In this document: piece by piece, positions 1-15,917 of the stretch | How the letters are laid out: each line of letters begins with the position of its first letter | How positions within the stretch are numbered: position 1 is the stretch's first letter | Virus record (IMG/VR): IMGVR_UViG_3300032220_002272 | DNA length: 20,000 bases | Origin: an uncultured virus (IMG/VR IMGVR_UViG_3300032220_002272) | Taxonomy: Duplodnaviria > Heunggongvirae > Uroviricota > Caudoviricetes | Reading direction: 5' to 3' (one strand) | The notes under the pieces: model-generated | Told to the model about the DNA's origin: nothing | What the model saw: only the letters and a program-made list of their open reading frames with translations | Database searches by the model: none | Made by a program: the position numbers and the translations under genes

Positions 1-10
1 TCGTCCAGTC

Positions 11-523
11 TCAGCGGACGCCCGCGGTGGGTGCGCGCAGCGTTTGACCCGTCATCCGCGGGCCAGCCCCGGCTTTGTCGAGCATAGTCGAAACCGCATG
101 TTCGACCGCCGCCGCCGGCGCATCCCCGTCGAACGACAGATGGTCGCCGATGCGATCCCGTTCGGCGAATGGACGGACGGTGACGGTCGTGCCACCCGGC
201 CCGCATTGCACCTCGACCCAATCCCCCTTGGTATGTTCGACACCAGCCGGCCAGTCTGGGCCAGGTCGCGCATAGACGGCGATGACAGCGCGCTTTGGCT
301 GCATGTCGTCGGCAAACTGAGGCTCGATCACGAGGACGACACCGGCGGACGCCAACTCGGCGGCGGCGCGCTCCAGTGCGGGCATCACCCGTTCCTGCAA
401 CTGATCGATAAACGGGCGCAGGATGGTCAGGCCGTTGCGCCGGTCACGCTCTGCGGCGGCGGCGGTGTTGAGGTCGAGGCGGATAGCCCCGGCGCGCGCG
501 ATCAGGGCGGCGAGATAGGTCAT
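11..523 (-). CDS. Hypothetical protein (170 aa)
   Basis: Protein-like composition, SD-like GGAG upstream of ATG, co-oriented with neighbours. Confidence 0.75.
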   Translation of the reverse strand: MTYLAALIARAGAIRLDLNTAAAAERDRRNGLTILRPFIDQLQERVMPALERAAAELASAGVVLVIEPQFADDMQPKRAVIAVYARPGPDWPAGVEHTKGDWVEVQCGPGGTTVTVRPFAERDRIGDHLSFDGDAPAAAVEHAVSTMLDKAGAGPRMTGQTLRAPTAGVR

Positions 524-545
524 AGGTATCTCCGTTTCCGGTCAA

Positions 546-1247
546 TCAGGAGGCGAGCGCAGCACGCAAAGCGTCGACCGCTTCGGGGTGGCGATCCCGC
601 ACGCCGCCGCCGCCGCGCTCCGCCACCAGCAGATAAACGCGCTCGTTGCCGGGTCCGACGAGCGACAGCGAGCTCTCCGGCGCGATGCGGCGTTGCAAGC
701 CATTGACGATGCCGCCCGGCCCGTCCGCCAGCCGCAGAAGGGAAAGCTCCTGCATAGGGGTGAGCACCTCGCGGGTCAGAACCTCCCAGCGCGTCAGCAA
801 TTCGGCGGCCAGGCCGTCATACGCCCCCCGCACGAACGCCTCCCATGCGTGCGCGCGATCGACCTGCCCCGCGGCGATGTCCGCTTCCAGCCCCGCGATC
901 TCGCCCTCGACCGCCGTCAGGGCCTGATGGAAAGCAGCCTGTACGGCGGCGGCGGCGTGATCCTGAACCGCCGCCGCCGCACGGCTATCGCGAAGCTGCG
1001 CCGTCGTGCTCGCGTCGATTGCCGTCGCCGGATCGGCAGCGAGGCGCGCAGCCAGATCGTCGGTTGCCGCGTCGGGTGCTGTCGACACAGCGCTTTCGCC
1101 TGCGATCCGCGCCGTAAGGGCATCGCGTCGGGCGCGCGCGCCGTCGAGGCGATCCGTGAAAGTCGCCAGGGCGGTATCGAGCTTGCGTACATCGGCGTCG
1201 AGCGCGGCAATGCGCTGACGCTCCGCCGTGTTGGTGAAGGGCGTCAT
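546..1247 (-). CDS. Hypothetical coiled-coil protein (233 aa)
   Basis: Start reassigned to ATG at 1247 (AAGGA SD upstream). Ala/Leu-rich heptad pattern (IAALDADVRKLDTALATFTDRLDGARARRDALTARIA). Confidence 0.75.
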   Translation of the reverse strand: MTPFTNTAERQRIAALDADVRKLDTALATFTDRLDGARARRDALTARIAGESAVSTAPDAATDDLAARLAADPATAIDASTTAQLRDSRAAAAVQDHAAAAVQAAFHQALTAVEGEIAGLEADIAAGQVDRAHAWEAFVRGAYDGLAAELLTRWEVLTREVLTPMQELSLLRLADGPGGIVNGLQRRIAPESSLSLVGPGNERVYLLVAERGGGGVRDRHPEAVDALRAALAS

Positions 1248-1413
1248 GGTGAATCCTTGTAATGGTGGGAGGCTGCCGGCGGACTGACATCGCCGGCTTG
1301 GGTCACGCCAGGCGATGGCGTGCCGGGTGGGGATGAGAAAGGCGACCAAGCCAGCGCGGTCCCCTGCCCGGTGCTATCCGCGCTTCGCTTCTCGGTAAGC
1401 GGTCACAGGCTGA

Positions 1414-1638
1414 TTACCGCGCCAGCGCCTTGCCGGCCTTGGCGAGCAGGCCAGCCCACCCATGGTCCGGCGCGGCGGCGGCGCGCTCGGCGGGCGCGGC
1501 GTTTTTCAGCGGTGCGCCGGCCTTCGCGAAGGCGCCTCCCCAGCCGTTCTTTGCGTCGGCGCGGTGAGCGGCGCCCCAATCGCGCAGGCCCGCGGTGGCC
1601 GCGGGCGTTCCGAAGTGCGAGAAATCGTGTTTCGGCAT
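1414..1638 (-). CDS. Hypothetical protein with repeated GW-x-x-x-x-AKAG motifs (74 aa)
   Basis: ATG at 1638 preceded by GAGGA; sequence MPKHDFSHFG...GWGGAFAKAG...GWAGLLAKAGKALAR. Confidence 0.65.
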   Translation of the reverse strand: MPKHDFSHFGTPAATAGLRDWGAAHRADAKNGWGGAFAKAGAPLKNAAPAERAAAAPDHGWAGLLAKAGKALAR

Positions 1639-1673
1639 GTGTCGTCCTCGCTGGCGTATTGAAGCGAACCCGA

Positions 1674-2009
1674 TCACCGCGGCCAGCGACGCGGGGGCGG
1701 GATCAGGTGCGCGAACGGAGACGATGGCGTGGGAGGTGGCGCGTCTGCATCGCCGCGAAGGTGCGCGAAAGGGCCTGACGGCGGTGGGACCGCTGCGCCG
1801 GGGCGAAGGTGTCCGAAGGTCCCGACCGGCGGGGCGTCGCGCTTGACCAGGTGCCATACCTGCCATGGCAGGCGCCTGCGGTCCGTCCTCCGCTTCGGCT
1901 CCGGCTGCTCTGCGTTCGCAAGCACGGGCGACGGCGCGGCGGCCGGTGCCTGCCCCTTCATTGTGCGGAACGCGGCCATGAGCATTTCGAAGGGGGAACG
2001 GCTCGCCAT
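1674..2009 (-). CDS. Hypothetical Pro-rich protein with three F(A/G)HL repeats (111 aa)
   Basis: TGATG coupling with the upstream gene; repeats TFGHLR / PFAHLR / PFAHLI. Confidence 0.6.
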   Translation of the reverse strand: MASRSPFEMLMAAFRTMKGQAPAAAPSPVLANAEQPEPKRRTDRRRLPWQVWHLVKRDAPPVGTFGHLRPGAAVPPPSGPFAHLRGDADAPPPTPSSPFAHLIPPPRRWPR

Positions 2010-2266
2010 CAGGACGCGTCCGCTGCTCGGCCCGCCCGGCGGAGGACGATCATATTGCGGCCGGACAGCTCATGAAGGGCGCGGCGCGTTACGTCGACCG
2101 GTAGGCCGGACGCAGCGGCGGCGGCGGCATCCGTGCCTCCATAGACGCCGGCAGGATCGACCATGCCACGGATCGCTCGCAGGACGGTGCGGGCGTTCAA
2201 CGACACATCGAACCCGCCAGGGCGCGACGCGGAGCGCGAACGCTGCGCGATCGTGCCGCGCTTCAC
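2009..2266 (-). CDS. Hypothetical protein, possible winged-HTH (85 aa)
   Basis: GTG start overlapping the upstream stop (GTGA); AAAASGLPVDVTRRALHELSGRNMI resembles a wHTH recognition helix and wing. Confidence 0.55.
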   Translation of the reverse strand: MKRGTIAQRSRSASRPGGFDVSLNARTVLRAIRGMVDPAGVYGGTDAAAAAASGLPVDVTRRALHELSGRNMIVLRRAGRAADAS

Positions 2267-2490
2267 TTCGCTTCCCCAGCCGATGAGCGCGCCGCCGCAG
2301 CTTCCTGGGCAGCGAAATGCTTCGCCAGCGTCGACCGCCGGGCGCAGACTGTCTTGCCCATCTTGAAGGTCGGAAGACCGCCGTTGCCGTGAAGGTGATA
2401 CACCTGCTTGGCGGTCAGATTGAGATGTTCGGCGATCGCGTTGACCCCATGAAGGAGGTCCGTTGTCGATGCGCCCTGTGCGTCGCTCAT
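2263..2490 (-). CDS. Excisionase-like HTH DNA-binding protein (75 aa)
   Basis: DLLHGVNAIAEHLNLTAKQVYHLHGNGGLPTFKMGKTVCARRSTL matches the MerR/Xis-like HTH pattern; GGAG SD upstream. Confidence 0.8.
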   Translation of the reverse strand: MSDAQGASTTDLLHGVNAIAEHLNLTAKQVYHLHGNGGLPTFKMGKTVCARRSTLAKHFAAQEAAAARSSAGEAK

Positions 2491-2586
2491 GCGTCACTCC
2501 ATGCGTTATTGAGGTGCCGGCCGATCTCGAAAAATGGCGGAAAACCGCCATTTATGCCGGCAGATGTCGGGAACACGCCTGACGTG

Positions 2587-2610
2587 AAAAAGGGGCGCCG
2601 TAGCGCCCCT
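2587..2610 (-). terminator. Intrinsic terminator between the truncated late gene and the xis-like gene
   Basis: Minus strand AGGGGCGC-TACG-GCGCCCCT followed by TTTT: perfect 8-bp GC-rich stem plus U-tract. Confidence 0.75.
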
Positions 2611-2642
2611 AAACTGTTGGAAAACTGCCGTTTTCTACCCTC

Positions 2643-2924
2643 TCAGCGTGAGAGGATACACAAGTATTCGGCCTGCACGTCTTTGAATGCCACGGTCGCC
2701 ACAGGCCGCGACTTGGTCGCCACTACGATGCGCGTCGCCTTCTGCGTAAAGGGCGTCGGCGTGTCGAACGTGTCGTTGATCTCGTCCTGCTCGACTGCGG
2801 CGACGCCGCGAGCGAGGTCGTTCAGCGCCAGCGACATCGCGAACGGGACCTGCTGCGCGCCTAGCGCGATCATCGCCCGGTGCAGTGGTTTGAGGTCAGC
2901 CTTAATGCTGATCCCGACGGGCAT
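2643..2924 (-). pseudogene. 5' part of a phage late-region protein (HK97 gp10/minor-tail-like), apparently truncated after ...KDVQAEYL
   Basis: QVPFAMSLALNDLA...FDTPTPFTQKA is typical of ~200-aa phage morphogenesis proteins (recalled, not searched). Here it stops at 93 aa with an atypical CILSR tail running into a palindrome. Confidence 0.6.
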
Positions 2925-3106
2925 CAGGCCCGACTGCGGCCGCGCACCGCGGCGCGCGCCTCGGCGGCGATCCGCTCAACGTTCGCGATGCGATCCTCGG
3001 CGCGGCCGTGGCTTTCGACATCAGTCTCGAAGTCAAACGCGGCGCTGTGCAGCTCGCCGGCCAAGCGCTCGAGGATCATCGCAGTGGTAGCGACAGGCTG
3101 GGGCAT
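2924..3106 (-). CDS. Hypothetical protein (~60 aa), first gene after the antiterminator
   Basis: GGGAGG SD upstream; TGATG coupling to the next gene. Confidence 0.7.
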   Translation of the reverse strand: MPQPVATTAMILERLAGELHSAAFDFETDVESHGRAEDRIANVERIAAEARAAVRGRSRA

Positions 3107-3241
3107 CAACGCCTCCCAACTTCCGAAACTTCGGTAGCCTTCGGACTTCCGCCGGCGCGGGCCGGGGAATGAGGTGGCGGGCGCGATTGGCTCATTGGCC
3201 AGCCTTCAAACCCGCGAGACTGCTTACGGCAGTGGCGCCCA

Positions 3242-3820
3242 TCAGCTGGGCTGGCGTTCCTGTACCTGATCCGTTCGCAAATGCATAGAGGCGATCTTGA
3301 AGTCGAACGGGCCGCCGAACGTCACGACTGTCCATGCGCCATCGGATTGCACCACTTCCCCGGTAAGACCGCGAAAGTGATTGCTTTCGACCCGCACCTG
3401 CTGCCCCGCGGCGAAGAGCGGCGCCCCTGCGCCGGTCGATCGCCGCGCCTTTCCACGCAGCTCCTCGGTGCGGAGGCGCTCGACCTCCGAATTCCATACC
3501 CGGACCACCTTCCCCAGGTGGTGGAAGATCGAAAACGCGGGGTAAGGTGAGACCGGCAGACGTAGGACGATTTGGAGATCATCGAGCCGATTGGCGCGAG
3601 CGAAAACGAACGTCGGCATAAGCGCGACCTCGACCTCGGTGGTCTTCGTCTTGCCCCGCAGCGCGCGACGTTTCTGCATGCGCGTCGGCGTCCAAACATC
3701 ATAGCCCGCTGCGCGCAACGCCTCGGCGAGGATCAACGTCCGCGGCGCAGCGGTGCGCAGCACAATCCATCGATCCGCATCACGCGCGGCGCCCGCCGCC
3801 TCAATCCTCTGGTGCATCAT
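3242..3820 (-). CDS. NusG/RfaH-family transcription antitermination protein (phage late antiterminator)
   Basis: NGN-domain motifs WIVLRT...GYDVWTP...ALMPTFVFA and a KOW-like FAAGQQVRVESNHFRGLTGEVV; located in the lambda Q position. Confidence 0.85.
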   Translation of the reverse strand: MMHQRIEAAGAARDADRWIVLRTAAPRTLILAEALRAAGYDVWTPTRMQKRRALRGKTKTTEVEVALMPTFVFARANRLDDLQIVLRLPVSPYPAFSIFHHLGKVVRVWNSEVERLRTEELRGKARRSTGAGAPLFAAGQQVRVESNHFRGLTGEVVQSDGAWTVVTFGGPFDFKIASMHLRTDQVQERQPS

Positions 3821-3914
3821 CCGCTATTCCCCGCATGCGATCACCGCGGGGACGGCTATCGCGTCACCTATGTGACGCGGGCCACGGCGGCGGAATAGTT
3901 GCCATTCCGTTCCG

Positions 3915-4199
3915 CTATGCGGCCAAAGGGGCAACGACCTGCCATCCCCGTCGCTGGAGCAGCGCAACGGCCGCCTCGACGTCACCCGGCACCGCCAGCC
4001 CATCGGCATGCCGCACCAACCGCCCGGCTGTGACGAGGCGCGCCACCGCGCGGCTGACGGCCGTCTTCGACCCCGCCCCCACCTCGAGCATGATCTCCCG
4101 AAGGCTGGGGCCGCGGTCGTATGTGAGCCGGAAGGCACGTACGAACGACACGATCTTGACGTCGATCCGAACGGCGCGCGGGATCGTCTGTTCGTTCAC
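3915..4199 (-). CDS. LexA DNA-binding-domain-like winged-HTH protein (94 aa)
   Basis: GTG start overlapping the upstream stop; GPSLREIMLEVGAGSKTAVSRAVARLVTAGRL matches the LexA N-terminal pattern; no peptidase domain. Confidence 0.75.
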   Translation of the reverse strand: MNEQTIPRAVRIDVKIVSFVRAFRLTYDRGPSLREIMLEVGAGSKTAVSRAVARLVTAGRLVRHADGLAVPGDVEAAVALLQRRGWQVVAPLAA

Positions 4200-4852
4200 G
4201 CCGCCTCCTGATGCCGACCCTCGAACGACATGGCGGCGGCGACCTGCTCCTCGGTCAGGAAGCCGGCACGAAGGCCCATGCGCCGTAGGTCGACCGTCAT
4301 GGCCCGTATGCTCTCGGCGGAGATCTCGACATCCGCCGGCGGCGGGAGGGCGGCGACCGGCGGGTTGAGCGCCCGATCGATCTCCGCGCGATGTCGCTGC
4401 ATGGCGGCTTCCCGCTCCTCCCGCTCGATGATCAGCTCCAGTGCGATACTGCGCAGCGTCGTCTCGATCTCTCCGATGAAGCGGAACGGGCAATGGATTG
4501 CCCGCTTGGCGGCAGTCAGCGAGATCATCGCCGGCAGATCGGCGAGCGCGTCCACCATGGCCTCGCGCCACGCCTGGGTATCCGCCGGCTTGGCGGTGGG
4601 GAGCACCTTGGCCGCCAGCCGCCGCAGGCGCTCGTCGATGGCATCGCCCCACTGCTTCCGGCCCTCGCTATCCTTGGGCACAGGCCGGAGATCATGAGCG
4701 ATTTTCGCGAGGGCCGCGTCGATGCACGCCGGGGCGTCAGCGCCGAGCCGCGTAGCGAGGGTCGTCGTCGTCGAGGGATGCAGGCTCAACGCCCGCCATG
4801 CCTGGTCGCGGAGCCCATCCACTAGCCCCCCGGTCGTCAGCCCGTTTTCCAC
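4196..4852 (-). CDS. Putative replication accessory protein (helicase loader/inhibitor-like, lambda P position)
   Basis: Follows the initiator gene; W...DALADLP...A..A.....F..EI pattern as in phage replication partners. Start uncertain because of a 116-nt overlap. Confidence 0.6.
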   Translation of the reverse strand: MENGLTTGGLVDGLRDQAWRALSLHPSTTTTLATRLGADAPACIDAALAKIAHDLRPVPKDSEGRKQWGDAIDERLRRLAAKVLPTAKPADTQAWREAMVDALADLPAMISLTAAKRAIHCPFRFIGEIETTLRSIALELIIEREEREAAMQRHRAEIDRALNPPVAALPPPADVEISAESIRAMTVDLRRMGLRAGFLTEEQVAAAMSFEGRHQEAA

Positions 4853-5633
4853 TGCGAAGCACTCCCTCGATGTAGCTGATGGGCTCGATGGCCCCTTCCC
4901 TCTGCGCCTTGCCCAGCGCGACGATCACCGCCTCTGGTCCGTGGCCGCCCTTCCACTTGCCGAGCAGCTTGCCCGCCTTCGGATCGACGATGCCGTGGCT
5001 GGCCAGGAACGCCTTGCCCTGATCCCACATGACCTTTTCCGGATCGATCGGCGGCGCTGCGGCGCCCGATCCGATAGGATCGGAATTAGAATCTCTCTGT
5101 CCCTGTCCCTCTCCCTGTCTCTTGGAGACTTCGTCCCCAAGGACACGCGCCGCTGCCCCTGGGGACAGGTGCGGGACAGAGGCGGGGAAATGCTGGGACA
5201 GGAAGGTGACGAAGTCCGGCGCGGCCACGTCTGTCTCGTGCCGCTGGTTATGCTTCTTCACCCGCGCGCATTCGGCGCGGTGACGCTGTTCGACCTTGCT
5301 GCGCCAGGCGGCCAGCACCTGCTCGGCGACCACTGGATGGTAGAGCCGGCCGTCCGCAGCCTCGACCCACCCGCGCAGCGCATCGGCGCGATGCTTGCGG
5401 AACGTCTTCAGGTCGCGCCCCAGCCCGCATAGGCGCGCCAGCACCGCATCCGCCGCCGGCAAAGACCCGGCCGGCAGCTGATGCCACGCCGCTGACCAGA
5501 GCAGCACGGCGTACCAGCACGCCTCCGGGTGGCTCTCCGCGGCGAGGTCGCTGTCGCGCAGCCGTGCAACATGCAGCGGCATGAACGGGAAGTCCTGCAG
5601 GTCCGCATCGGCGGGTGTCAGCGGCGCGGTCAT
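4737..5633 (-). CDS. DUF1376/YdaU-family phage replication initiator-like protein
   Basis: DLQDFPFMPLHVARLRDSDL...LWSAAWHQLPAGSLP...DGRLYHPVVAE; low-complexity linker containing ori-like repeats. Confidence 0.8.
   Translation of the reverse strand: MTAPLTPADADLQDFPFMPLHVARLRDSDLAAESHPEACWYAVLLWSAAWHQLPAGSLPAADAVLARLCGLGRDLKTFRKHRADALRGWVEAADGRLYHPVVAEQVLAAWRSKVEQRHRAECARVKKHNQRHETDVAAPDFVTFLSQHFPASVPHLSPGAAARVLGDEVSKRQGEGQGQRDSNSDPIGSGAAAPPIDPEKVMWDQGKAFLASHGIVDPKAGKLLGKWKGGHGPEAVIVALGKAQREGAIEPISYIEGVLRSGKRADDRGASGWAPRPGMAGVEPASLDDDDPRYAARR
5066..5200. repeat. Candidate replication origin: TGTCCC/GGGACA repeats plus palindrome
   Basis: TGTCCC at 5098 and 5104; GGGACA at 5162, 5173 and 5195; palindrome CCGATCC-GATA-GGATCGG at 5066-5083 next to a short AT-rich patch, all within the initiator linker. 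Confidence 0.5.
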
Positions 5634-5998
5634 GCGCGATCCTTTGCGGGGGGTGAGATGCGGACGATCACGGCGCCGCCGGTGACGGGCGCGCCGCGCG
5701 ACATGCTGAGTTCGAACAGGCTGTCGTCGATGCCGATCGCGGCGCTAACCGCGTCGAGGCCGGCTTTGATCGCGGCGAGCATGTTGTCGATGTCGCGGCG
5801 CTGCGCGTCAGGCGGGTGGAAGACGACCGTCACCGCCGCCGCCGTGTAGTCCACCGGACGAAGTCCGGCCGCCTTGCACGCCCAGCCGCAATCGGTCTTG
5901 TAGCGCTTGGCCGCCTTGGCGCGCTTGCTCCAGTGGAGGCGGCGCGCCTGGTTCGGGTTCAGCGATGGCGCGGGCCATGGGAGCGTGACCTCGATCAT
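5630..5998 (-). CDS. rusA: RusA-family Holliday junction resolvase
   Basis: IEVTLPWPAPSLNPN...FHPPDAQRRDIDNMLAAIKAGLDAV...IDDS. Start at ATG 5998 overlapping the upstream stop. Confidence 0.85.
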   Translation of the reverse strand: MIEVTLPWPAPSLNPNQARRLHWSKRAKAAKRYKTDCGWACKAAGLRPVDYTAAAVTVVFHPPDAQRRDIDNMLAAIKAGLDAVSAAIGIDDSLFELSMSRGAPVTGGAVIVRISPPAKDRA

Positions 5999-6846
5999 AC
6001 GCCACACATCCCCTCGCATTCGAGGTCGAAGCCGAGTTGCCGGTCATCGCCGCCGATTGGCGCCTCAGACAGCGGCAGCATGGACGGATGCATGAATTCT
6101 TGCCCGCGCATCTTGCCGCCATCCCCGAGGCGCATCTGGCGATCGACTTCACATGCGTCTGCCCATTCGGCGGGGGAGTTGTCCCGCATGTCGCGCCACA
6201 TCGCATTCGTGTGAAAGGGGCAGCCGATACAGGAGGACTTGGGGGCCGTTTCCTGCCGTTCCGCCATCCACCGGATGCAGTCCGCGCGAGACATGCCCGC
6301 CTCGATCAAAGGCCACCGATTCACCTGCCACTGCACGCGGCTGGGCTTCATGCGCGCGATCTCGTCCATGGAGATGCCGACCCACATCTCGACCGCGCCG
6401 GGCTTGATCCTAGCGCGGGGCCCTACGCCGAGCAGCTCGCGTAATTTTCGGCTGATGGGCTGGAGCTTGTACTCCTTGGTGCATTGGCGACGGCCCATAC
6501 CCTTCGTGCCGTCGGGATTGAGGACGAACCAGGGCACCGCCGCGTATCGGCCGCCTATCGTCGTGCGCCGCGCGATAACGTCCTCCCGTATGTTGCCGGC
6601 AGACACGACATGGACAGGGAAAGGCAGGCGATCGCGGAGGCGAGCCAGATGTTCGCGCACCGCCCGGGGTTCCCAACCTGTATCGGCGAATATGGCGCAG
6701 TCCGGCATCGGGCCGACGTCGCCCCGCGCCGCCGCCAGTGCGAGCGTGGTCGACTGTACGCCCGCCCCCAAGGACAGCACCCGCTTCTGGGGAGCGGGAA
6801 GCGGTGCCGACAATGTCGGCCACTCGTTCGGCCACTGATAGGTCAC
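5995..6846 (-). CDS. PAPS-reductase-like (adenine nucleotide alpha hydrolase/PP-loop) protein (283 aa)
   Basis: VLSLGAGVQST, AIFADTGWE, RQCTKEYKLQPI, KSSCIGCPFH and C-terminal CEGMCGV. GTG start overlaps the MTase stop. Confidence 0.8.
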   Translation of the reverse strand: MTYQWPNEWPTLSAPLPAPQKRVLSLGAGVQSTTLALAAARGDVGPMPDCAIFADTGWEPRAVREHLARLRDRLPFPVHVVSAGNIREDVIARRTTIGGRYAAVPWFVLNPDGTKGMGRRQCTKEYKLQPISRKLRELLGVGPRARIKPGAVEMWVGISMDEIARMKPSRVQWQVNRWPLIEAGMSRADCIRWMAERQETAPKSSCIGCPFHTNAMWRDMRDNSPAEWADACEVDRQMRLGDGGKMRGQEFMHPSMLPLSEAPIGGDDRQLGFDLECEGMCGV

Positions 6847-8249
6847 GCTGCGCGCACCTCCGCGCCATCCTGCGCCGCCATCACGTCGGCCAAGCCGTGC
6901 GCGATCCACCGCATCACGTTGACCGCTTGGCTGTTCCCCAGCGCCTTGTAGCGCGGCCCGTCCGCCGCCGGCTTCCCGCGATAGGTGATCGCGGTGAAGC
7001 CGTCCGGCGCGCCCATGAGCCGCTCGCATTCAGTGGGCGTGAGGCGGCGCACCGCCCACTGGTCGGCGATGTTCAGTTCCTGACGCCGACCGCCGCCGGA
7101 CGGCGCGTTGAGGCTATAGGCAAGCCCCTCCTGCCACTCGACGTTTCGACCGCCTTCCCGGCCGCGCTCCTGAAACGCGATCGGTTGCACGATCGCCTGC
7201 GCACTGCGGTCTGTCCCGGTCGTCAGCGATCCACTGACGCCGCAGGTTTCATAGGCGCCATCGTTCGGCGTGATGCGGTAGGCCACTGCGTCAGGGCGCT
7301 TGGCCCGCATAGCGTAGCCGACGTCCGGCTGCACGCCCAACCCGGAGCGCTCCGCTGCGGTGCCTCCGGCTCCTTCCCCGGACCGATCCAGCGCATCGCT
7401 GTGAATGGCATAGCACGGCACTATCGGCGTACCGCGCCCGGTGCCGTCTTCGCTGGCATCAAACCCTTCGGCGCGCAGGGCATGCGCCACGAAGGTTTCA
7501 ACCTCAAAATCGCATTTGTGCCCGCGCGCCGTCAGGCATGCCGCCTGCTCTACCGCTCCAGCCCGATTGCCACCGCCGAAAGCGCGCGCGCCAAGAGCGC
7601 CGGCAATGCCTTCCCCCGCTTGGCGGCGCGGCGCAGGATTCCCGCGCAGGCTTTCGCGCTCAAATAATACCGCTGCGGGACCGGCTGCGTCTCCAAGATG
7701 TGCGACAACGAACACACGCCGCCGCCGCTGGGGCACGGCCCCCTCGTGCCCGTCCACTCGGACGTATTGAGCGTCCAGCACTCGGTAGGCCCACCCATAC
7801 CCGAGTTCGCCCAGGAGCCGGAGGAAGGTTCCCATCGTTCGTCCGCTGTCGTGCGACAGGAAACCGGGGACATTCTCCCATACCAGCCATCGCGCGCGAA
7901 CGCGTCGAGCCAGCGCCAGGAACTCAAGGGTGAGGTTGCCGCGCGGGTCGTCCAGGCCAAGGCGCTTTCCTGCGACGCTGAATGCTTGGCAGGGGGTGCC
8001 TCCGGCAAGGAGGTCAACAGGTCCAACATGGTGGCTCTCGATCTTGGTGAAGTCGCCGAACAGGGGCGTCGTGTTGCTGCCGGGGACGAAGCGGTGATCC
8101 CACTCGACCGGCACCGCGCCGTGACGCTGCTCGAGCACCGCGCGCGGGAACGCTTCGATCTCGGAATAGCCGACGCAGCGGAACCCCAGCCCCGCCGACG
8201 CGAGGGTGAAGGCGCTGTAGCCCGAGCAGACGTCGAGGTAGCGGATCAT
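6843..8249 (-). CDS. DNA (cytosine-5) methyltransferase
   Basis: Motifs I (LDVCSG), IV (GGTPCQAFSVAG), VI (WENVPG), VIII (PQRRRRVF), IX (RRLTPTECERLMG) and X (RYKALGNS). Confidence 0.95.
   Translation of the reverse strand: MIRYLDVCSGYSAFTLASAGLGFRCVGYSEIEAFPRAVLEQRHGAVPVEWDHRFVPGSNTTPLFGDFTKIESHHVGPVDLLAGGTPCQAFSVAGKRLGLDDPRGNLTLEFLALARRVRARWLVWENVPGFLSHDSGRTMGTFLRLLGELGYGWAYRVLDAQYVRVDGHEGAVPQRRRRVFVVAHLGDAAGPAAVLFERESLRGNPAPRRQAGEGIAGALGARAFGGGNRAGAVEQAACLTARGHKCDFEVETFVAHALRAEGFDASEDGTGRGTPIVPCYAIHSDALDRSGEGAGGTAAERSGLGVQPDVGYAMRAKRPDAVAYRITPNDGAYETCGVSGSLTTGTDRSAQAIVQPIAFQERGREGGRNVEWQEGLAYSLNAPSGGGRRQELNIADQWAVRRLTPTECERLMGAPDGFTAITYRGKPAADGPRYKALGNSQAVNVMRWIAHGLADVMAAQDGAEVRAA
7550..8029 (-). 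CDS. Nested +1-frame ORF resembling the M.EcoHK31I beta polypeptide (159 aa)
   Basis: SWANSGM...CWTLNTSEW...CSLSHILE...PQRYYLSAKACAGILRRAAKRGKALP..L..AL; own ATG with GAGAG upstream. Confidence 0.65.
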   Translation of the reverse strand: MLDLLTSLPEAPPAKHSASQESALAWTTRAATSPLSSWRWLDAFARDGWYGRMSPVSCRTTADERWEPSSGSWANSGMGGPTECWTLNTSEWTGTRGPCPSGGGVCSLSHILETQPVPQRYYLSAKACAGILRRAAKRGKALPALLARALSAVAIGLER

Positions 8250-8542
8250 CAGGCGGCCTTCACCCGATCGCGACTGAAGAACGTCGGATCCGACGGGCGA
8301 ACCCGCTCGCGCAGATCGTCACCCAACACCGCCCCAGGCTGCGCGCCGTCGATCGGCAAAGCGAACGGCGGCCGGGGCGGAAGCGGCGCGGGCGGGTTCA
8401 CCGCGGTGCGCGCCCGGTAGATCGACGCCGCCCATTCCGGCTTCGTGTGCTTCAGCATCTCGAGTTCGGCGGCGGCGGCGTCGAAGTCGCGGGCCAGGAT
8501 CGCGCGCGCGAGACGTTCGCGCCAATCAAGTGCAGTTCCCAT
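8249..8542 (-). CDS. Hypothetical protein (97 aa)
   Basis: Strong GAGGAGG SD; TGATG coupling to the MTase. Confidence 0.75.
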   Translation of the reverse strand: MGTALDWRERLARAILARDFDAAAAELEMLKHTKPEWAASIYRARTAVNPPAPLPPRPPFALPIDGAQPGAVLGDDLRERVRPSDPTFFSRDRVKAA

Positions 8543-8576
8543 CGTTACCTCCTCTTCGTGGTGGTTGGTGGCCGCG

Positions 8577-9680
8577 TCAGACGCGGAGCGGCATCAGCAC
8601 GAGGCTCGCGGCCTTCGCCTTGGGGCTGGTGATCAGTGCGGGCGCCGCCGCATCGCCCAGCGAGAACTCGACATGATCAACGTCGAGCGCGGCGAGCGCG
8701 TCGCGCAGGTACTTGCTGTTGAAGCCGATGGTCAGTGGGTCGCCCTCGTATTCGCAGGGCACCTCGTCGACGGCTTCGCCATGCTCGGGCGTCGTGATGG
8801 AGACGCGTAGGAGATCTCGCTTCAGATCGAAGCGGACCGCGCGCACCTTGTCCGTCGCCACCAGGGCAAGCCGGCCGACCGCCACCCTCAGCGCGTCGCG
8901 ATCAACCGAGGCGACGGCTGGGGCTGGCGCCGGTATCGTGCGAGCGTAATCCGGATACGTCCCATCGACCACCTTGGCGACGATGACGAAATCGCCGGCG
9001 GCCATCGTGACCTTGCCGTCGCCGACCGCGACGTCGATCGACGTTTCGCGCGCTTCAGCCGCCGCGCGCGCCAGATCAATGCAGCGGGTGCGCAGGATGG
9101 TGTCGGGCATGCTTTGAGCGCCTTCCGGCAGGTCGTCGACATAGCGGGCGAGCCGATGGCCGTCGCACGATGCAAACCGGAGCGATCCTTCGAACGCGTG
9201 CAGGAAGACGCCGTTCAAATAATAGCGAACCTCTTCGGTCGACACCGCGTGGCGCACCACGTCCAGCGCGCACACCAACGCCTTGCTTTCCAGTGTGAAG
9301 CGCGCCTGCACGACCTCCTGCTTCAGGATCGGGAATTGGTCCTTCGGCAGCGTCGCGAAGCGGAACCGCGCCCGGCCGTTCGATACTGTCGCGGCCGATC
9401 CGTCGAACTTGATCGCCGTCTGGCTGCCGCCGCCGAACGACCCGACCACGTCCGCCAGGCGGTGCGCGTCGAGGGTGAAGCTGATCGGCCGCTCAACGAC
9501 GGCGGGAACGGTCAGCGTGACCATCACGTCCAGGTCGGAAGCGGTCAGGCGGACCATCCCGGCTTCCGCCTCGACCAACACGTTCGCGAGGATCGGGATG
9601 GTGTTGCGGCGCTGTACGGCGGCGCGCACCTCGCGCAGCGCGCGGTTGAGCTTGTCGGTTTCAAAGGCGATGGTCGTCAT
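8577..9680 (-). CDS. dnaN: DNA polymerase III beta sliding clamp paralogue (367 aa)
   Basis: RRNTIPILANVL, LTASDLD, AVSTEEVRYYLNGV, SCDGHRLA, DGTYPDY, IGFNSKYLRDAL and C-terminal VLMPLRV. Start at ATG 9680 (ATGA overlap). Confidence 0.95.
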   Translation of the reverse strand: MTTIAFETDKLNRALREVRAAVQRRNTIPILANVLVEAEAGMVRLTASDLDVMVTLTVPAVVERPISFTLDAHRLADVVGSFGGGSQTAIKFDGSAATVSNGRARFRFATLPKDQFPILKQEVVQARFTLESKALVCALDVVRHAVSTEEVRYYLNGVFLHAFEGSLRFASCDGHRLARYVDDLPEGAQSMPDTILRTRCIDLARAAAEARETSIDVAVGDGKVTMAAGDFVIVAKVVDGTYPDYARTIPAPAPAVASVDRDALRVAVGRLALVATDKVRAVRFDLKRDLLRVSITTPEHGEAVDEVPCEYEGDPLTIGFNSKYLRDALAALDVDHVEFSLGDAAAPALITSPKAKAASLVLMPLRV

Positions 9681-10003
9681 GCGATGGCTCCGATGGACGG
9701 GGCGGCGGGCTCGACAGGCCCCTCGCCAATTTCGCGGAAGAGGTTTGCGGACACGCGGGCGCAGCGCTCGGCGACCTTGGCGAGCTCGCGCGCCAGCATG
9801 CGGACTTCGAAATCCGTGATGGTCGTGTTGCCCTGCCGCTTGTCGTACAGGCCGCGCTCGCTGCACCCGATCAGGGCGGCGACGTTCTTGAACCCGCCGC
9901 GATCGCACATGATCTCGCAAGCAGTTTCGAGGCCGGCCATGCGTGGCACCGACAACCGCCGCGCGACTGCTTCCGAATGTTCGGAAGTGGCTTTTTCCAC
10001 CAT
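9677..10003 (-). CDS. Hypothetical protein, possible HTH (108 aa)
   Basis: Coupled on both sides; GGFKNVAALIGCSERGLYDKRQG is HTH-like. Confidence 0.7.
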   Translation of the reverse strand: MVEKATSEHSEAVARRLSVPRMAGLETACEIMCDRGGFKNVAALIGCSERGLYDKRQGNTTITDFEVRMLARELAKVAERCARVSANLFREIGEGPVEPAAPSIGAIA

Positions 10004-11220
10004 CACGCCACCTCCACATTGCTGAGCAGGACGCCCTGATCGGCCTCGATTCGGCGGCGTGCGATCGCCGCGTATTCCGGGTTCAACTCGATCAGGATCG
10101 CATCGCGCTGCAGGCGATCTGCGACGAGGCCGGTCGTACCAGCGCCGCCGAACGGGTCGAGGACGACGCCGCCGGCTGGGCATCCCGCAAGGATGGCGCG
10201 CGCAGCCAGCTCAGTCGGGAAAGTGGCGAAGTGGGCCTCTTTGAACGGCTGGATCGCGATCTCCCACACCGGAAGCGCCGCGGGTTCGTAATTGCGGAGG
10301 TATCGTCCGTCGCCACGAGGGGTGTTGGCGATCCCGGTGTGATTGACGTGACCCTCGTGGCGCGGGCCAACGGTGCGAGTCTTCCCCTTCTCACGGCCCT
10401 GACGATGGTGCGACCCATGGGCGCCAGCACCCGTGTCCCAGCCATCTGGCATCTTGATGCGACGGTTGCCCGTTACCGCGCGAGGCCCCGGTACGCCGCC
10501 GACATAGCTGCCACCCCGAAAGGTCGCGGCGTCCTCGTCCGACGTGCGTCCTTGGAGGACGGCGGCCGCATTGTAATAGGTGCCGATCTTGAGCCAGCGA
10601 GACCCATCCCGCTCCGGATCGGTGATCAGCGGGCAGCGCTCGGTCAGGTCGGGGCAGAACGACAGCTCGCCGGTGTCGCGGGCGCGCCAGATATCTCCGT
10701 CGTCCGACTTCGCCAGCCAGAAGACCTTCTCGTGCGAAGTAGATGGGCGCTGCGAACCCGAGCTGTCGGGCATCGGGTTGAGCTTGCCCCACACGATCTC
10801 AGAGCGCACCCACCAGCCCGCGTCCTGCAACGCGATGGCAAGCCGGTTCGGCACCATGCACAGATCCTTGGGCTTGATCCCGGCACCGACGGTGCTGAAC
10901 GGCTTGTCGCGGAAGGTGCGATCGTCGTTGCCCGCAACCTTCGCATCTGCCGCTGATCGCCCGTTCGGAGCGGAAGCATAGCAGTCGCCGTAATTCAGGA
11001 AGCAATTGCCGGTCGGCTTCAGAACCCGGCGCACCTCCTCGAACACCGCGACCATGATCTCGAGATGGTCTGCAAGCGTCGGCTCCAGTCCGATCTGCCC
11101 GGCGACGCCGTAATCGCGCAGCCCCCAATAGGGCGGCGACGTCACGCAGCAGTCCACGGAGTCGGACGGGATCAACGCGAGCTGCTCACGCACGTCCCCG
11201 AGCATGATGCGGACACTCAT
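10003..11220 (-). CDS. DNA N4-cytosine/N6-adenine methyltransferase (beta class)
   Basis: SVDCCVTSPPYWGLRDY near the N-terminus; HFATFP and VLDPFGGAGTTG near the C-terminus. Confidence 0.93.
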   Translation of the reverse strand: MSVRIMLGDVREQLALIPSDSVDCCVTSPPYWGLRDYGVAGQIGLEPTLADHLEIMVAVFEEVRRVLKPTGNCFLNYGDCYASAPNGRSAADAKVAGNDDRTFRDKPFSTVGAGIKPKDLCMVPNRLAIALQDAGWWVRSEIVWGKLNPMPDSSGSQRPSTSHEKVFWLAKSDDGDIWRARDTGELSFCPDLTERCPLITDPERDGSRWLKIGTYYNAAAVLQGRTSDEDAATFRGGSYVGGVPGPRAVTGNRRIKMPDGWDTGAGAHGSHHRQGREKGKTRTVGPRHEGHVNHTGIANTPRGDGRYLRNYEPAALPVWEIAIQPFKEAHFATFPTELAARAILAGCPAGGVVLDPFGGAGTTGLVADRLQRDAILIELNPEYAAIARRRIEADQGVLLSNVEVA

Positions 11221-11381
11221 GCCGCGCGACTCTCGCGCACCGGCAACCCGATCACCGGGTGCCAGCCCATCACGCAGCCGTTCACGGCATACAGGCGCGT
11301 TGCGAGCGCGCTGGCCGCAGGACGCAGAGGTTCGTCCGCCGTCCCGCCCTTCGACGGGATCGACGCTGTTCGCATCGTCAT
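11217..11381 (-). CDS. Small hypothetical protein (54 aa, not in ORF track)
   Basis: GGAG SD; MTMRTASIPS...GWHPVIGLPVRESRAA; stop overlaps the MTase ATG (ATGA). Confidence 0.55.
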   Translation of the reverse strand: MTMRTASIPSKGGTADEPLRPAASALATRLYAVNGCVMGWHPVIGLPVRESRAA

Positions 11382-11421
11382 GGTGTCACTCCTGGCGGGC
11401 GGCTGCCCGCGGGCTAGATCC

Positions 11422-11907
11422 TCAGGTCTGGTCGGTCAGGCGGCGTTGGGACTTGGCGCGCTGCTCACGCAGGCGGTCGATGTGTCGGGCGACAGCTTCG
11501 ATCTCGGGCCACATGCCGTCGAGCTCCTCGTCGTCGACGATGTTGTCGTTCTCGAGCGCCGCCGCCTTTTTCGCCATGAGGTCGGCGAGCGCCTTCAGTG
11601 CCGTGCGGCCTTCACAGGCGCCGGCCGCGTCGATCGGGCTGATCCGCATGCCAACGAGGCCCATGACGTCGTTGGCAAAGCGGCCGTCCCACTCGCGGCA
11701 GCCGCGCAGGAACGATACGACACCCATCTCGCCCAGGGCTGTGCGGTAGCGCGCGGCGGTGTCCTCGTGCTTTCCCAGCACCGCACCAAGGTCGGCATCG
11801 GTCGCCCCATCCTCCGTCTTGATCGTCTCGAGGCTCTTGCCGAGCGTCTCAAGCAGTAACGATGCGGGAACGGTGCGGTAGCGGTTGTGGATGTGCGGCG
11901 CGGTCAT
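11422..11907 (-). CDS. CII-like phage regulatory protein
   Basis: Position downstream of cro; HTH-like TDADLGAVLGKHEDTAARYR and C-terminal ALENDNIVDDEEL pattern. Confidence 0.65.
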   Translation of the reverse strand: MTAPHIHNRYRTVPASLLLETLGKSLETIKTEDGATDADLGAVLGKHEDTAARYRTALGEMGVVSFLRGCREWDGRFANDVMGLVGMRISPIDAAGACEGRTALKALADLMAKKAAALENDNIVDDEELDGMWPEIEAVARHIDRLREQRAKSQRRLTDQT

Positions 11908-12164
11908 GCTGCAAAGCCTTCGACATGAACAGGGAAACGATCCACCTCGCCCCGAAAGACGACCGCCTCGCGGTTGCCCGCGCGTTGGTCGACAAAGGTG
12001 CCGGTGACGCAGGTACGCGCGTCACCGGCGAGGGGGCGGCCGCCCGTCATGGTTTCAGCGGCCGCGGGGAGAGCTTGGGCGCGACGGATCGCGCAATCGG
12101 TGTGGGTGCAGGCGAAGGCCTCCGGATGCCAGGGGCCGATGCCGCAGCGATCGCAGGTGCTCAT
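11904..12164 (-). CDS. Hypothetical protein with Cys-rich N-terminus (86 aa)
   Basis: ATGA overlaps at both ends; CxxC...CxxxxC. Confidence 0.6.
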   Translation of the reverse strand: MSTCDRCGIGPWHPEAFACTHTDCAIRRAQALPAAAETMTGGRPLAGDARTCVTGTFVDQRAGNREAVVFRGEVDRFPVHVEGFAA

Positions 12165-12403
12165 GCGGCCGCGACCTCATCGATCGGATACAGGTCCGGC
12201 CGCAGATCGTGGCGGCTGCCGAAGCCTTCCCGTTCTGCCTTTAAAACGAACTCTCCCGGGAGCGGTCGGCCGTTCTTAAGCCAGTACGAAACCATCTGCT
12301 GCGAAGTGCCAATTGCCGCAGCGAAACGCGACTGGTTGTCCCCTGCGGCTGCGACAGCAGCCCTGAGTGCGGTGTGCATGGTGTCGGGAGAAGGATCGCT
12401 CAT
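12161..12403 (-). CDS. cro: Cro/YdaS-family transcriptional regulator
   Basis: NQSRFAAAIGTSQQMVSYW HTH and RHDLRPDLYP signature; divergent from the repressor. Confidence 0.88.
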   Translation of the reverse strand: MSDPSPDTMHTALRAAVAAAGDNQSRFAAAIGTSQQMVSYWLKNGRPLPGEFVLKAEREGFGSRHDLRPDLYPIDEVAAA

Positions 12404-12411
12404 GACCCGCA

Positions 12412-12478
12412 TTTATACAGAAGTTCTGTAGCCGTGCAACAGGACTTTTGTAGCCCCGCCAGCCGCAGTATTTTTGTA
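12412..12478. promoter_or_regulatory. OR-like operators and PR promoter
   Basis: 15-bp sites TACAGAAGTTCTGTA (12416, perfect palindrome), AACAGGACTTTTGTA (12438) and CGCAGTATTTTTGTA (12464). Minus-strand TTGCAC-16nt-TATAAA overlaps them. Confidence 0.8.
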
Positions 12479-12490
12479 GGTGCCGGTGCC

Positions 12491-13174
12491 ATGGATGCGC
12501 ACCTCACCGATCCGGATGCTGCCCAGGCTTGGATGATACGCGAGCGCAAGAAGCGCGGATGGTCGACCTCCAAGGTGGCAGACGTGGCCCGAGCCATCGC
12601 GCGACGCGAGGGAAGCGAAATGAAGCTGACCCAGCAGTCGGTATCGGGTTTCGAGACTGGTGATCCGAAGCGGATGCCGGAATGGATGCGTTACGTGCGC
12701 ATGGCGTTCGAGGAGGGGGAGCCGGAACCAGATGCTGACACCCAGCCCCGCGACGAGGTCGTGTACATTCGTCAGCTCGACATTCGATACGCCCTTGGCC
12801 CTGGCGCGGCCATTGAACGCGCCACGTCGGCCACGCTCGTTCCCTTCAATCTCGGCTTCATCCAGTCACTCACGAGGTCCCCGACTGAGCGCTTGTTTAT
12901 CGCTACGGGCTTCGGCGACAGCATGGAGCCGGTGCTGCTCAAACATGACCTGGTGCTCATCGATGCGAACGACACCAGCCTCGATTTGGGCGATACGCTG
13001 TGGGCGCTAGAGTATGCTGGCAGTGGGCTGATCAAGCGCCTTCGCGCAGTCATGCGAGATGGGAAGCGCAAGCTGGTCATTATGTCGGCGAACCCAGACT
13101 ATCCGGCGGAGGAGGCTGATCCGAAGGACGTCCGAATCATCGGGAAGGTGGTTTGGGTTGCGCGTCGGATGTAG
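12491..13174 (+). CDS. cI: CI-like repressor (HTH + S24 peptidase)
   Basis: N-terminal HTH (LTQQSVSGFETG), catalytic GDSMEP and LIKRL, C-terminal RIIGKVVW. Start set at ATG 12491. Confidence 0.92.
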   Translation: MDAHLTDPDAAQAWMIRERKKRGWSTSKVADVARAIARREGSEMKLTQQSVSGFETGDPKRMPEWMRYVRMAFEEGEPEPDADTQPRDEVVYIRQLDIRYALGPGAAIERATSATLVPFNLGFIQSLTRSPTERLFIATGFGDSMEPVLLKHDLVLIDANDTSLDLGDTLWALEYAGSGLIKRLRAVMRDGKRKLVIMSANPDYPAEEADPKDVRIIGKVVWVARRM

Positions 13175-13183
13175 GCTCGGCCA

Positions 13184-13594
13184 ATGGCTTGGTCTCAACT
13201 CAGCGTAAAGATCGTCGGCGCAAATCATCCGAATGCCGATGGCGGCAATCGGCGGAGCGAAATTGCTTTCTGCGATGCTGGCGAGCCAGTGGAACTTCGC
13301 CCGGAGCCTAAGAACCCGCACGACGAACATGCGATTGCCGCGTACTCGGCGCGCGGTTTTCAGATCGGCTATGTGGCTTCTGATCGAGCGGTATTGCTGA
13401 AGGGGCTAATGCGGGATGGCCACGTGGTCACCGCCATCTTTCAGGACGTAGCCACATGGGGTGCGATTGCCCGAATCGGTATCGACTGCTCGCCGGTCCT
13501 GCCGACGCCAACGGTTTCTGAGGATAGCCACGACGATCCGCTGCCGACTTCAGAGCCGGATTTTTGGCCGGACTACATCCCTCCCGACGACTGA
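13184..13594 (+). CDS. HIRAN domain protein
   Basis: IVGANH...VELRPEPKNPHDEHAIAAY...QIGYV HIRAN signature. Confidence 0.85.
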   Translation: MAWSQLSVKIVGANHPNADGGNRRSEIAFCDAGEPVELRPEPKNPHDEHAIAAYSARGFQIGYVASDRAVLLKGLMRDGHVVTAIFQDVATWGAIARIGIDCSPVLPTPTVSEDSHDDPLPTSEPDFWPDYIPPDD

Positions 13595-13600
13595 CGTATC

Positions 13601-13642
13601 TACAAAACTATTGTTGACATAACTACAGCACTTTTGTAGCTC
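13601..13642 (+). promoter_or_regulatory. OL-like operators and PL promoter
   Basis: TACAAAACTATTGTT (13601) and TACAGCACTTTTGTA (13624) match the OR consensus; perfect TTGACA -35 at 13614-13619. Confidence 0.8.
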
Positions 13643-13680
13643 GCTTCCAAGCCGCACAACGCGGCATGGAGGTTTCACCT

Positions 13681-14151
13681 GTGGCCACCGCCCTACGCAC
13701 CGACTGGCCGAGCGACGAACGCGATCCCCGCGTCGACGCCGCCGTCGAGGATTTTCGCGCCGCCGTCATTGATCTGCGCCGGCTGAGTGCTGCGCTGTTC
13801 GAGCTGCCCGCGGGCAGCTCGCATCGCCCACCGCTGAAGGAGCAGATCGACGATCTGGTCGGTGGCATGCAGGCGCGCTGCGACATGCTGGGGATCGACC
13901 TCGACCAGCTGTTCCAGCTCATCAACGCCGACCTCGCGGCCCGGCGCGGCGGCGGTAACGATCACCGCCCGCATGGCGATCACCTCCGCGCGCTTGTTGA
14001 TGAGGTGAACGGCGCCTACGCCGATGAGGCGACCATCCACCGCAACATCACCCGCCTGCAGGATCTGCTGCCCAGCGCCGCCGCGCGCCGGATCGCCGCC
14101 GACCGTGCATGCGCCGGTTTCGTCGCGGGCTGGCCGGAGCGCGGACGATGA
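13681..14151 (+). CDS. Hypothetical protein (first gene of PL operon)
   Basis: GGAGG SD before GTG 13681; helical protein-like composition. Confidence 0.7.
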   Translation: MATALRTDWPSDERDPRVDAAVEDFRAAVIDLRRLSAALFELPAGSSHRPPLKEQIDDLVGGMQARCDMLGIDLDQLFQLINADLAARRGGGNDHRPHGDHLRALVDEVNGAYADEATIHRNITRLQDLLPSAAARRIAADRACAGFVAGWPERGR

Positions 14152-14396
14152 GCGCCGCCGCGCCCGCCCCGCGGTCAGAAAAGCAAGAGCAGTTCCTCAT
14201 CTACCTCCGCCGCATTGGTCCGGAGGGTTGGGACAGGTCCCGCAACGACAGCGTCCTATGCGCGCTCGAGCGCGACGGCCTGGCCGAATATCGCGGCACC
14301 CGCGCCCGTCCCCGCGTCGAGGCATGGCACGCCACCCCCGCCGGCGCGAAGTGGGTCGAGGATGCCCGCGCCGCCGCCCTCGCACAGGAGGTCTGA
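14148..14396 (+). CDS. Hypothetical protein (82 aa)
   Basis: ATGA overlap; LERDGLAE...WHATPAG resembles a wHTH wing. Confidence 0.65.
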   Translation: MSAAAPAPRSEKQEQFLIYLRRIGPEGWDRSRNDSVLCALERDGLAEYRGTRARPRVEAWHATPAGAKWVEDARAAALAQEV

Positions 14397-14397
14397 C

Positions 14398-14625
14398 ATG
14401 ACCCGCGACACCTTCCTTCATATCGTCGGCTGGCTGTGCCTGATCGCGATCGCCGAGGTCGCCATCTTCACGATGAGCGAGACGGTCGCGCCGCAGTGGC
14501 GCCGGATCTGGCGTCTCGCCACCGGCCATATCGACCCGGCGCCCATCCCCCCAGCTGCCTCGGACGCGCGCGCCGCGTCGGCACTCCCCCAGAGTTCTGC
14601 GGAGGGACGATATCATGTTCAGTAA
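14398..14625 (+). CDS. Small membrane protein (75 aa)
   Basis: AGGAGG SD; hydrophobic stretch FLHIVGWLCLIAIAEVAIF. Confidence 0.65.
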   Translation: MTRDTFLHIVGWLCLIAIAEVAIFTMSETVAPQWRRIWRLATGHIDPAPIPPAASDARAASALPQSSAEGRYHVQ

Positions 14626-15100
14626 GGCTGTGGTCGAGCGGTTTAAATCGAAGATCGGCAACGGCGCTGCGGACGAATGTTGGATGTGGCAGGGCTATCG
14701 GACGAAGTTCGGCCATGGCCAATTCTGGATCGAAGGCCGAGCGGTTGTCGCATCTCGCATCGCTCTAGCGATCAAGTTGGGGAGGCCACTTACCTCCGCC
14801 GAAGCGGCTTGCCATTCATGCGATAATCCGGGGTGCTGTAACCCAGCGCATCTTTGGCTCGGTGATGTCGCCGCCAATAACAGAGACATGATCGCAAAAG
14901 GCCGGCAGCATCAGCAACGACAATCTGCGTGTCGCCACGGGCATCCATTCGTACCTCAAAATACCTACATGGCGCGGCGCGCCGATGGGCGAACTTTCCG
15001 CCGATGCCGAACCTGCCAGCGCGCGATTGATGCGAAACGCGATTATGCCGCAGAGGCTGCCCGCCGCGCCGCCGCGCCAGCTCTCCAGGTCGGCGCATGA
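14615..15100 (+). CDS. HNH (His-Me finger) homing-type endonuclease
   Basis: DECWMWQG...GHGQF...ACHSCDNPGCCNPAHLWLGDVAANNRDM plus a C-terminal CRHGH...CRTC zinc motif; visibly more AT-rich than neighbours. Confidence 0.9.
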   Translation: MFSKAVVERFKSKIGNGAADECWMWQGYRTKFGHGQFWIEGRAVVASRIALAIKLGRPLTSAEAACHSCDNPGCCNPAHLWLGDVAANNRDMIAKGRQHQQRQSACRHGHPFVPQNTYMARRADGRTFRRCRTCQRAIDAKRDYAAEAARRAAAPALQVGA

Positions 15101-15696: not shown

Positions 15697-15917
15697 CGGA
15701 CGTATTGCCGCCGCCATTCTGGATTGTCTGGTCGCCTAGCGGCCAGCGCCCGCCCCGTTTCATGCACCCTTCTGAGGATGCCGCATGGGCGGAGGCCAAT
15801 CGCCTCGCAGACTGCCACCCCGGGCAGGAGTTCTACGTCATGCAGCCAACCGCGCAGGTCATCACCCAGCGGCGTCTGACCCAGCGCTACGCCGGCGACG
15901 ACGGGATACCTTTCTGA
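15693..15917 (+). CDS. Small phage protein ending in DDGIPF (74 aa)
   Basis: ATGA overlap; FWIVWSP...H.S...A..EANRLA...PGQEFYVM pattern; SSB-like acidic tail. Confidence 0.75.
   Translation: MTDVLPPPFWIVWSPSGQRPPRFMHPSEDAAWAEANRLADCHPGQEFYVMQPTAQVITQRRLTQRYAGDDGIPF

Follow-up and report, generated by a model that had tools for sequence, protein, structure and literature searches.

The locus studied here raises the question of why a late gene of a prophage should end after only 93 amino acids (aa) and give way, on the same strand, to an intrinsic terminator and an excisionase (Xis)-like gene. It lies in a stretch of 20,000 nucleotides (nt), hereafter the window, from the uncultured Caudoviricetes virus IMGVR_UViG_3300032220_002272, and a reading made from the letters of the window (the sequence-only reading) had proposed that a satellite-like element has integrated into the late gene, that its excision restores the gene, and that its excisionase is gated by a terminator which a NusG-type antiterminator opens. 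The window forms the right-hand 20 kb of a virus record of 50,676 bp in total; positions left of it are given as G000 C1 coordinates (window position = C1 minus 30676). We find that a site-specific satellite is integrated in the probable tail-completion gene of its helper, a dormant Sphingomonas-type virus, and that recombination at a 7-bp core restores the gene.

Integration into the late gene

The open reading frame at 2643-2924 on the minus (-) strand is present as it had been described: it encodes 93 aa ending in ...KDVQAEYLCILSR*, with the final residues and the stop supplied by the arm of the element, and represents the 5' half of a late gene (phrog_1924). The 3' half lies left of the window (C1 13391-13793) and is followed by the helper genes for terS, terL, portal, protease, capsid, sheath, tube and tape measure; in a profile search the 5' half matched positions 4-92 of phrog_1924 and the 3' half positions 90-237. 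Between the halves sits an element of 19,547 bp, co-oriented with the helper late gene and bounded by the 7-bp core CCGAATA at 2665-2671 (-) (attL) and, left of the window, at C1 13794-13800 (attR), so that positions 1-2671 (-) of the window belong to the element, which crosses the left window edge. The sequence-only reading had predicted a second integrase to the left, a short repeat of the sequence near ~2655-2670, and the missing half of the late gene followed by terminase and portal genes; the repeat is the core just described, the gene half with terS, terL and portal lies where it was expected, and the integrase is a tyrosine integrase (C1 13820-15061; PF00589, E 2.4e-23), the last gene of the element.

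A second virus record (L004) carries the late gene intact (220 aa), identical at 663/663 nt to the two halves as joined by script, with flanks that are 98.6% identical. The empty site itself is held by run X8, from a study not marked as the source of this DNA (runs were compared as contigs): a contig at depth 365.5 joins L164 position 194 to 19742, with 7 shared letters, and thereby leaves out exactly 19,547 nt. In the same run, a variant element is represented by a single contig of 18,894 nt (depth 84.2), which starts internally and ends at the core; the remaining 486 letters are 456 missing bases and 30 letters of overlap, and the empty-site contig and this element contig together account for the whole depth of the first bin. 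Run X8 thus probably contains a closed circle of the element as well as an empty helper; the 15 joints listed for X8, of 25, do not include the attP one. Given a near-identical helper that lacks the element, and one sample in which both separated forms apparently occur, the system is probably still active. The element variants in runs X8 and X13 (L164:1637-12509) show many swapped blocks in regulatory and cargo regions.

These data leave practically no room for the view that there is no mobile element here and that deletion, chimera formation or misassembly produced the junctions. That view can draw on a core of only 7 bp and on longer chance repeats between both flanks, and it is refuted by the intact L004 allele together with the run X8 joint; in addition, the attR junction is identical in a second record (L003) and variants of the element occur in the runs of other studies. 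The proposal of a satellite integrated in a late gene, with excision restoring that gene, therefore stands.

The intact late protein has 393 homologues in a search limited to 121-385 aa, and among the 120 listed the lengths are 191-235 aa. Foldseek gave no match for its model, and a wide structural search aligned the model with 9mu2_P, chain P of the SaPI1 neck structure (Z 9.6, rmsd 3.3, 102 residues aligned), a match that suggests that the split gene probably encodes a tail-completion protein.

The leader of the element

Inside attL, 54 nt after the core, lies the intrinsic terminator that had been read at 2587-2610 (-): an 8-bp GC hairpin (2591-2610) with a UACG loop and a U-run (2587-2591) only 5 long. 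The 51-nt hairpin segment folds at -19.4 kcal/mol (z -3.5; 0/200 shuffles as good), and our own scan of all 50.7 kb of the minus strand gave only two strict terminators, of which this is the stronger, and no other strict one on that strand inside the element. The built-in terminator scan did not list it, probably because that scan counts an A-U pair as stem and leaves 4 U; the built-in promoter scan found no promoter near it. Behind the terminator comes the first gene of the element, at 2263-2490 (-), which encodes 75 aa and is HTH_17/excisionase-like, in agreement with the sequence-only reading: the product itself matches TIGR01764 below the cut-off (E 0.0012), its homologue in L016 matches HTH_17 at E 1.2e-6, and the ESM Atlas assigns it at 0.95 to an excisionase-family cluster.

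The terminator recurs across the clade of related elements. In a set of 37, whose left ends were located through the leader Xis-like gene (so that the universality of that gene is circular), a terminator was found 20-250 nt upstream of the gene in 24/37 by the strict and 29/37 by the relaxed definition, against 3/444 and 11/444 control starts, respectively. An earlier set of 32 loci, of which three were not at the true left end (two were dropped and one re-anchored), had, in 19/32, a strict terminator at a distance of 117-187 nt ahead of the Xis-like match, and for 18 of these 19 a search over 35-95 nt ahead of the hairpin gave a candidate core at 52-70 nt. Conservation was judged by folding each sequence rather than by covariation; in the column-wise covariation of alignment A4 a +2 slide scored higher, the structure being out of register and stems and loops varying in length.

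Aligned relatives show the leader in the order core, IHF-like site, hairpin, second site and tandem repeats over the xis start. What we take to be the IHF consensus is exact in 10/37 leaders and in 7/370 random windows. The second site (2527-2552, -) can fold into a hairpin here, but what the aligned relatives keep is a motif and not a hairpin, and the reading as a second, tandem terminator was therefore set aside; the site, in an IHF-like position, more likely serves as the DNA target of an accessory protein. The tandem repeats TAACGCA/TGACGCA (2488-2508, -) run across the translation start of the Xis-like gene (ribosome-binding site and ATG) and return at the 3' end of the integrase gene; the repeat pattern is present in 31/37 elements (counted without a control run). 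They are probably integrase arm sites.

A NusG paralogue in the Q slot

In phage lambda, the late antitermination regulator Q is encoded at the end of the early operon. The helper is a lambdoid-type prophage with cI, cro, replication genes and RusA, and downstream of these, near the end of the cro-side early operon, a NusG paralogue (NGN + KOW; 3242-3820, -) occupies the slot where lambdoid phages carry Q. Its recognition as NusG-like was correct: it matches phrog_6386 at E 1.5e-23, and its model (pLDDT 84.8) matches NusG/RfaH structures with a best E of 1.6e-7. Two curated models were reached, both below their cut-offs, namely UpxY (E 4e-12; 46 vs 100 bits) and RfaH (E 0.004; 17 vs 144.5 bits), and no match to the protein was found among GenBank phages. 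It shares the NGN + KOW fold with RfaH, LoaP and UpxY, and its gene adjoins a long operon as loaP and upxY do (PMC7819879, PMC12691694); it differs from them in being phage-encoded, in its position in the Q slot, and in falling below the UpxY and RfaH cut-offs.

A co-oriented upstream phrog_6386 match on the same contig was found at 13/50 clade loci, and a local profile, applied to the regions analyzed, revealed no further NusG-like genes beside clade elements. Where a helper has no NusG-like gene, the genes in the slot (L165:9976-10819, L169:8032-8607, L174:12044-12841 and L170:12024-12632) are unannotated or match only families of unknown function; in L165 a tRNA-Met lies just before the late gene.

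A terminator that may time excision

Sequence comparison gives an even chance, in our estimate, that one terminator in the attachment arm serves in three ways, blocking leak in the lysogen, being read through late, and parting int from xis in the circle. In the lysogen, leaky late transcription of the helper would end at it before entering the Xis-like gene and the replication, terS and tail genes that follow in the same orientation. After induction, helper late transcription would read through it, which would delay excision until replication of the composite is complete; the NusG paralogue of the Q slot would probably assist read-through in this helper, and the late regulators of other helpers, of whatever kind, would take that role there. 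Once the circle has been excised, the terminator would stand 80 nt behind the integrase stop and part int from xis, which would favor integration in the next host. As to the claim that the terminator gates xis, the terminator itself proved to be clade-wide and at similar spacing, with no promoter-like pattern behind it; that it guards the Xis-like gene is suggested by this conservation.

In lambda, the int terminator (tI/sib) lies beyond attP and is separated from int by integration. The leader here is analogous in that a terminator across the attachment site would follow int only in the circle, and the regulator at the end of the early operon is a second likeness; in contrast to lambda, that regulator is NusG-like and not Q, no tR'-like terminator was found after the NusG gene, and xis lies behind the terminator rather than upstream of int. 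The terminator may be mainly the int terminator of the circle and an insulator, with xis expressed from its own promoter through a trans-acting factor (an antirepressor or AlpA-like activator) and no late read-through at all. Only 1/62 integrated loci have a terminator at most 250 nt after int; since the integrated loci lack their own, the circle needs the one in the leader, and we infer that this hairpin naturally terminates int once the element is excised. Two further features fit this account: the element encodes a Bro-N/ANT antirepressor (C1 15903-16694) and a PadR protein whose gene diverges from the integrase-side operon, and the lambda layout provides a precedent. It accounts less well for the 0/24 leaders with a promoter-like pattern between terminator and Xis-like gene (4.1 expected), and the co-oriented targeting of late genes (49/63 loci, below) is more readily understood if the elements exploit late transcription. 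We regard it as rather unlikely.

The leader HTH protein may, on the other hand, be a transcription regulator, with the three-HTH Xis-like gene beside the integrase (C1 15061-15906) as the real directionality factor, an arrangement compatible with the other readings. The three-HTH gene overlaps the start of int and matches TIGR01764 at E 0.0005, and AlpA-type proteins serve as activators as well as excisionases (Tommasini, Mageeney & Williams, 2023; PMC10111431). A second Xis-like copy beside the integrase is found in only 11/37 elements, however, and is missing there in 26/37, and we consider this arrangement improbable.

Whether the NusG paralogue is what opens the terminator is a separate matter. 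By the relaxed definition the terminator is present in 14/14 elements, the present one included, with a co-oriented NusG-like gene upstream and in 15/23 without (Fisher p 0.015). Several observations weigh against such an opening, or against the timing scheme as a whole. By the strict definition the association falls to 12/14 vs 12/23 (p 0.074); since related rows are counted together and low-GC Brucellaceae-like loci account for several misses, neither p-value is clean, and the class without NusG may include missed or off-contig genes. The 15/23 elements without a NusG-like gene carry the terminator whatever the regulator of their helper, which also suits a terminator that mainly serves int; among them is the closest relative at the same site (L165/L086), where a terminator is present and no NusG-like gene was detected. 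The stretch from the NusG gene to the late gene contains no terminator in our own scan, and inspection of 18 downstream leaders by eye, with no motif search, revealed no clear shared loading motif. The promoter-like pattern used above is our own relaxed guess, and in the present element a second Xis-like gene does sit beside int. Lastly, RfaH is inefficient against hairpin (intrinsic) terminators, whereas LoaP reads through them (PMC7819879).

The last point, together with a U-run of 5, also fits a gate of dose, in which strong late transcription simply leaks through a moderate terminator and the effect of the NusG paralogue is, as with RfaH, on Rho-dependent polarity, with hairpin termination unchanged. 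With only one other strict terminator on its late strand, the helper would have little need to override hairpins. Against a gate of dose, the best curated model is UpxY and not RfaH (both below cut-off), and 14/14 NusG-bearing helpers host terminator-bearing elements; we think it quite improbable. Of the NusG-gated scheme as first proposed, then, the satellite and the restoration of the gene are secure, and the opening of the terminator by NusG is not established, the terminator being found in so many elements without a NusG-like gene; we judge that the paralogue opens it at somewhat below even chances. The full scheme remains tentative: a second, independently evolved clade of embedded satellites may time its life cycle with one attachment-arm terminator, opened by helper late antitermination and reused for int, the opener often being a phage NusG paralogue that does the job of Q.

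Gene content of the element and its helper

From attL the order of transcription is the Xis-like gene, unassigned genes, an HTH_36 replication initiator (C1 29074-29823), a cos-like 104-bp copy of the stretch before the helper terS (C1 26987-27089), a terS-like gene (C1 26072-26692), a tail-assembly chaperone (C1 24213-24779), a tape-measure-like gene (C1 22364-24010), tail-fibre-like genes, a RelE/HigA pair, the Bro-N antirepressor, the three-HTH Xis-like gene and the integrase. The unassigned genes in the window include one of 233 aa (546-1247, -) and one of 170 aa (11-523, -), both without a family match; the latter has a homologue in the related element L086. The description of the element as small non-structural genes does not hold for the whole, given the terS-like, tail-chaperone, tape-measure and tail-fibre-like genes further left. 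Among the element proteins scanned there was no match to capsid, portal or TerL, and none to Phage_AlpA or primase, the element having an HTH_17-like protein and the HTH_36 initiator instead; Rfam returned nothing meaningful within the element. In the broad sense it is a phage satellite, with no capsid, portal or TerL of its own and with a cos-like copy and a terS-like gene that match helper packaging. The 104-bp copy is tentatively regarded as cos-like by analogy, from its position and from the cos layout of lambda.

Cargo on the opposite strand comprises Abi_alpha, a RelE/HigA-type pair and PadR (C1 25360-26085, 19586-20217 and 18699-19013). Several clade members have their own tape-measure-like gene, mostly with a tail chaperone (L086:1150-3364, L104:1977-4409, L168:5000-8529); the copy in the present element (C1 22364-24779 with the chaperone) is 72% identical to that of the helper over 330 nt. 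The closest element, at the same site, bears an intact spare copy of the interrupted gene and then terS (L165:17386-17976), and a similar intact late-gene copy lies upstream of the integrase in L104 (4667-5266); the element studied here, unlike L165 with its spare late gene, keeps only the cos-like segment and terS.

On the helper side, the first gene after the NusG paralogue (2924-3109, -) encodes 61 aa of unassigned function; family and profile searches gave no match, and the gene is also found in L004 and L005. An ARAGORN search of the window, L001 and L002 gave no tRNA. Two DNA methyltransferase genes and PAPS-reductase-like, sliding-clamp-like and Mom-like genes lie at 5995-11220 and 17350-17826 of the window.

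An integrase clade aimed at late genes

The integrase was traced in 159 loci, of which 66 were kept once distant hits, short records, L003 and eight visible duplicates had been dropped; near-identical integrases (L008/L089 and L022/L026/L099) were retained, and 3/66 without downstream DNA leave 63 scored loci. The integrase is followed by a phage late gene in 49/63, with 38 matched from an internal position and 11 in which a late gene comes next. No late match follows in 14/63, and at least 3 of these 14 are probably late-gene sites too: L022 because it has the same integrase as L099, and L033 and L121 because the 5' part of a capsid gene lies upstream. Targets include terL, terS, portal, protease and capsid. 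The two gene halves continue on one profile or query in nine pairs, and joining them in script at the candidate cores gave an open frame in 7/7 tested, with element sizes of 9.8-11.0 kb and 19.1 kb.

The named hosts of the clade are mostly Alphaproteobacteria, and GenBank phages held no close integrase (among the 25 matches listed, all were <=29%). A quick integrase tree with many open forks, used only for these two points, groups the element with L086 and L006 and places it at a long distance from the integrase of the satellite 11capE. The most similar integrase (76%; L006:5302-7354) is followed by an SMC/SbcC-like gene and no late gene, and this insertion is possibly off-target or a relic. 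The provirus G032 (L102, L124) has two clade integrases, and at L106:7793 and L124:11701 the integrase is followed by another Xis-like gene, which suggests tandem or neighboring elements.

Relation to known helper-embedded satellites

The nearest known counterpart is the HE-PICI family of helper-embedded satellites, whose member 11capE resides in prophage 50icd (Tommasini, Mageeney & Williams, 2023; PMC10111431). The likeness is extensive: a tyrosine-integrase satellite of 10-20 kb, co-oriented in a prophage late gene that excision restores; one integrase clade with many late-gene sites; Bro-N genes; and captured late genes with a cos-like copy (PMC10111431). As in HE-PICI, excision is precise and no attP replacement sequence is involved, as judged here from sequence (the 663/663 nt identity and the X8 empty site).

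The differences are equally clear. The integrase has no BLASTP similarity to that of 11capE (best E 0.49), whose clade belongs to the P4/PICI group, although the helper's own integrase does resemble the latter (25%). Gene order here is Xis-like, Rep, late genes, Bro-N and int last, in contrast to int-alpA first, then Bro, Replication and Late in 11capE (PMC10111431). The doubled TGTATTGC motif around attP has 0 copies in this element and 4 in 11capE, an HTH initiator takes the place of the primase, the hosts are Alphaproteobacteria, and the conserved leader terminator is not described for HE-PICI in the parts of the source consulted (PMC10111431). The element thus works like HE-PICI and is not a member of that family. 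In a literature search that covered a minority of subscription journals, we found no paper on alphaproteobacterial embedded satellites, on tail-carrying embedded satellites or on a phage NusG late antiterminator; a literature search likewise gave no paper on the layout with an int terminator beyond attP.

Taken together, these results mean that the targeting of late genes by satellites arose a second time, in an integrase lineage unrelated to the first, and that it spans many Alphaproteobacteria and many sites. The hypothesis of 2023, that helper late transcription runs into the embedded satellite, becomes testable on a hairpin of 24 bp, and the leader terminator provides a natural reporter for a phage NusG paralogue.

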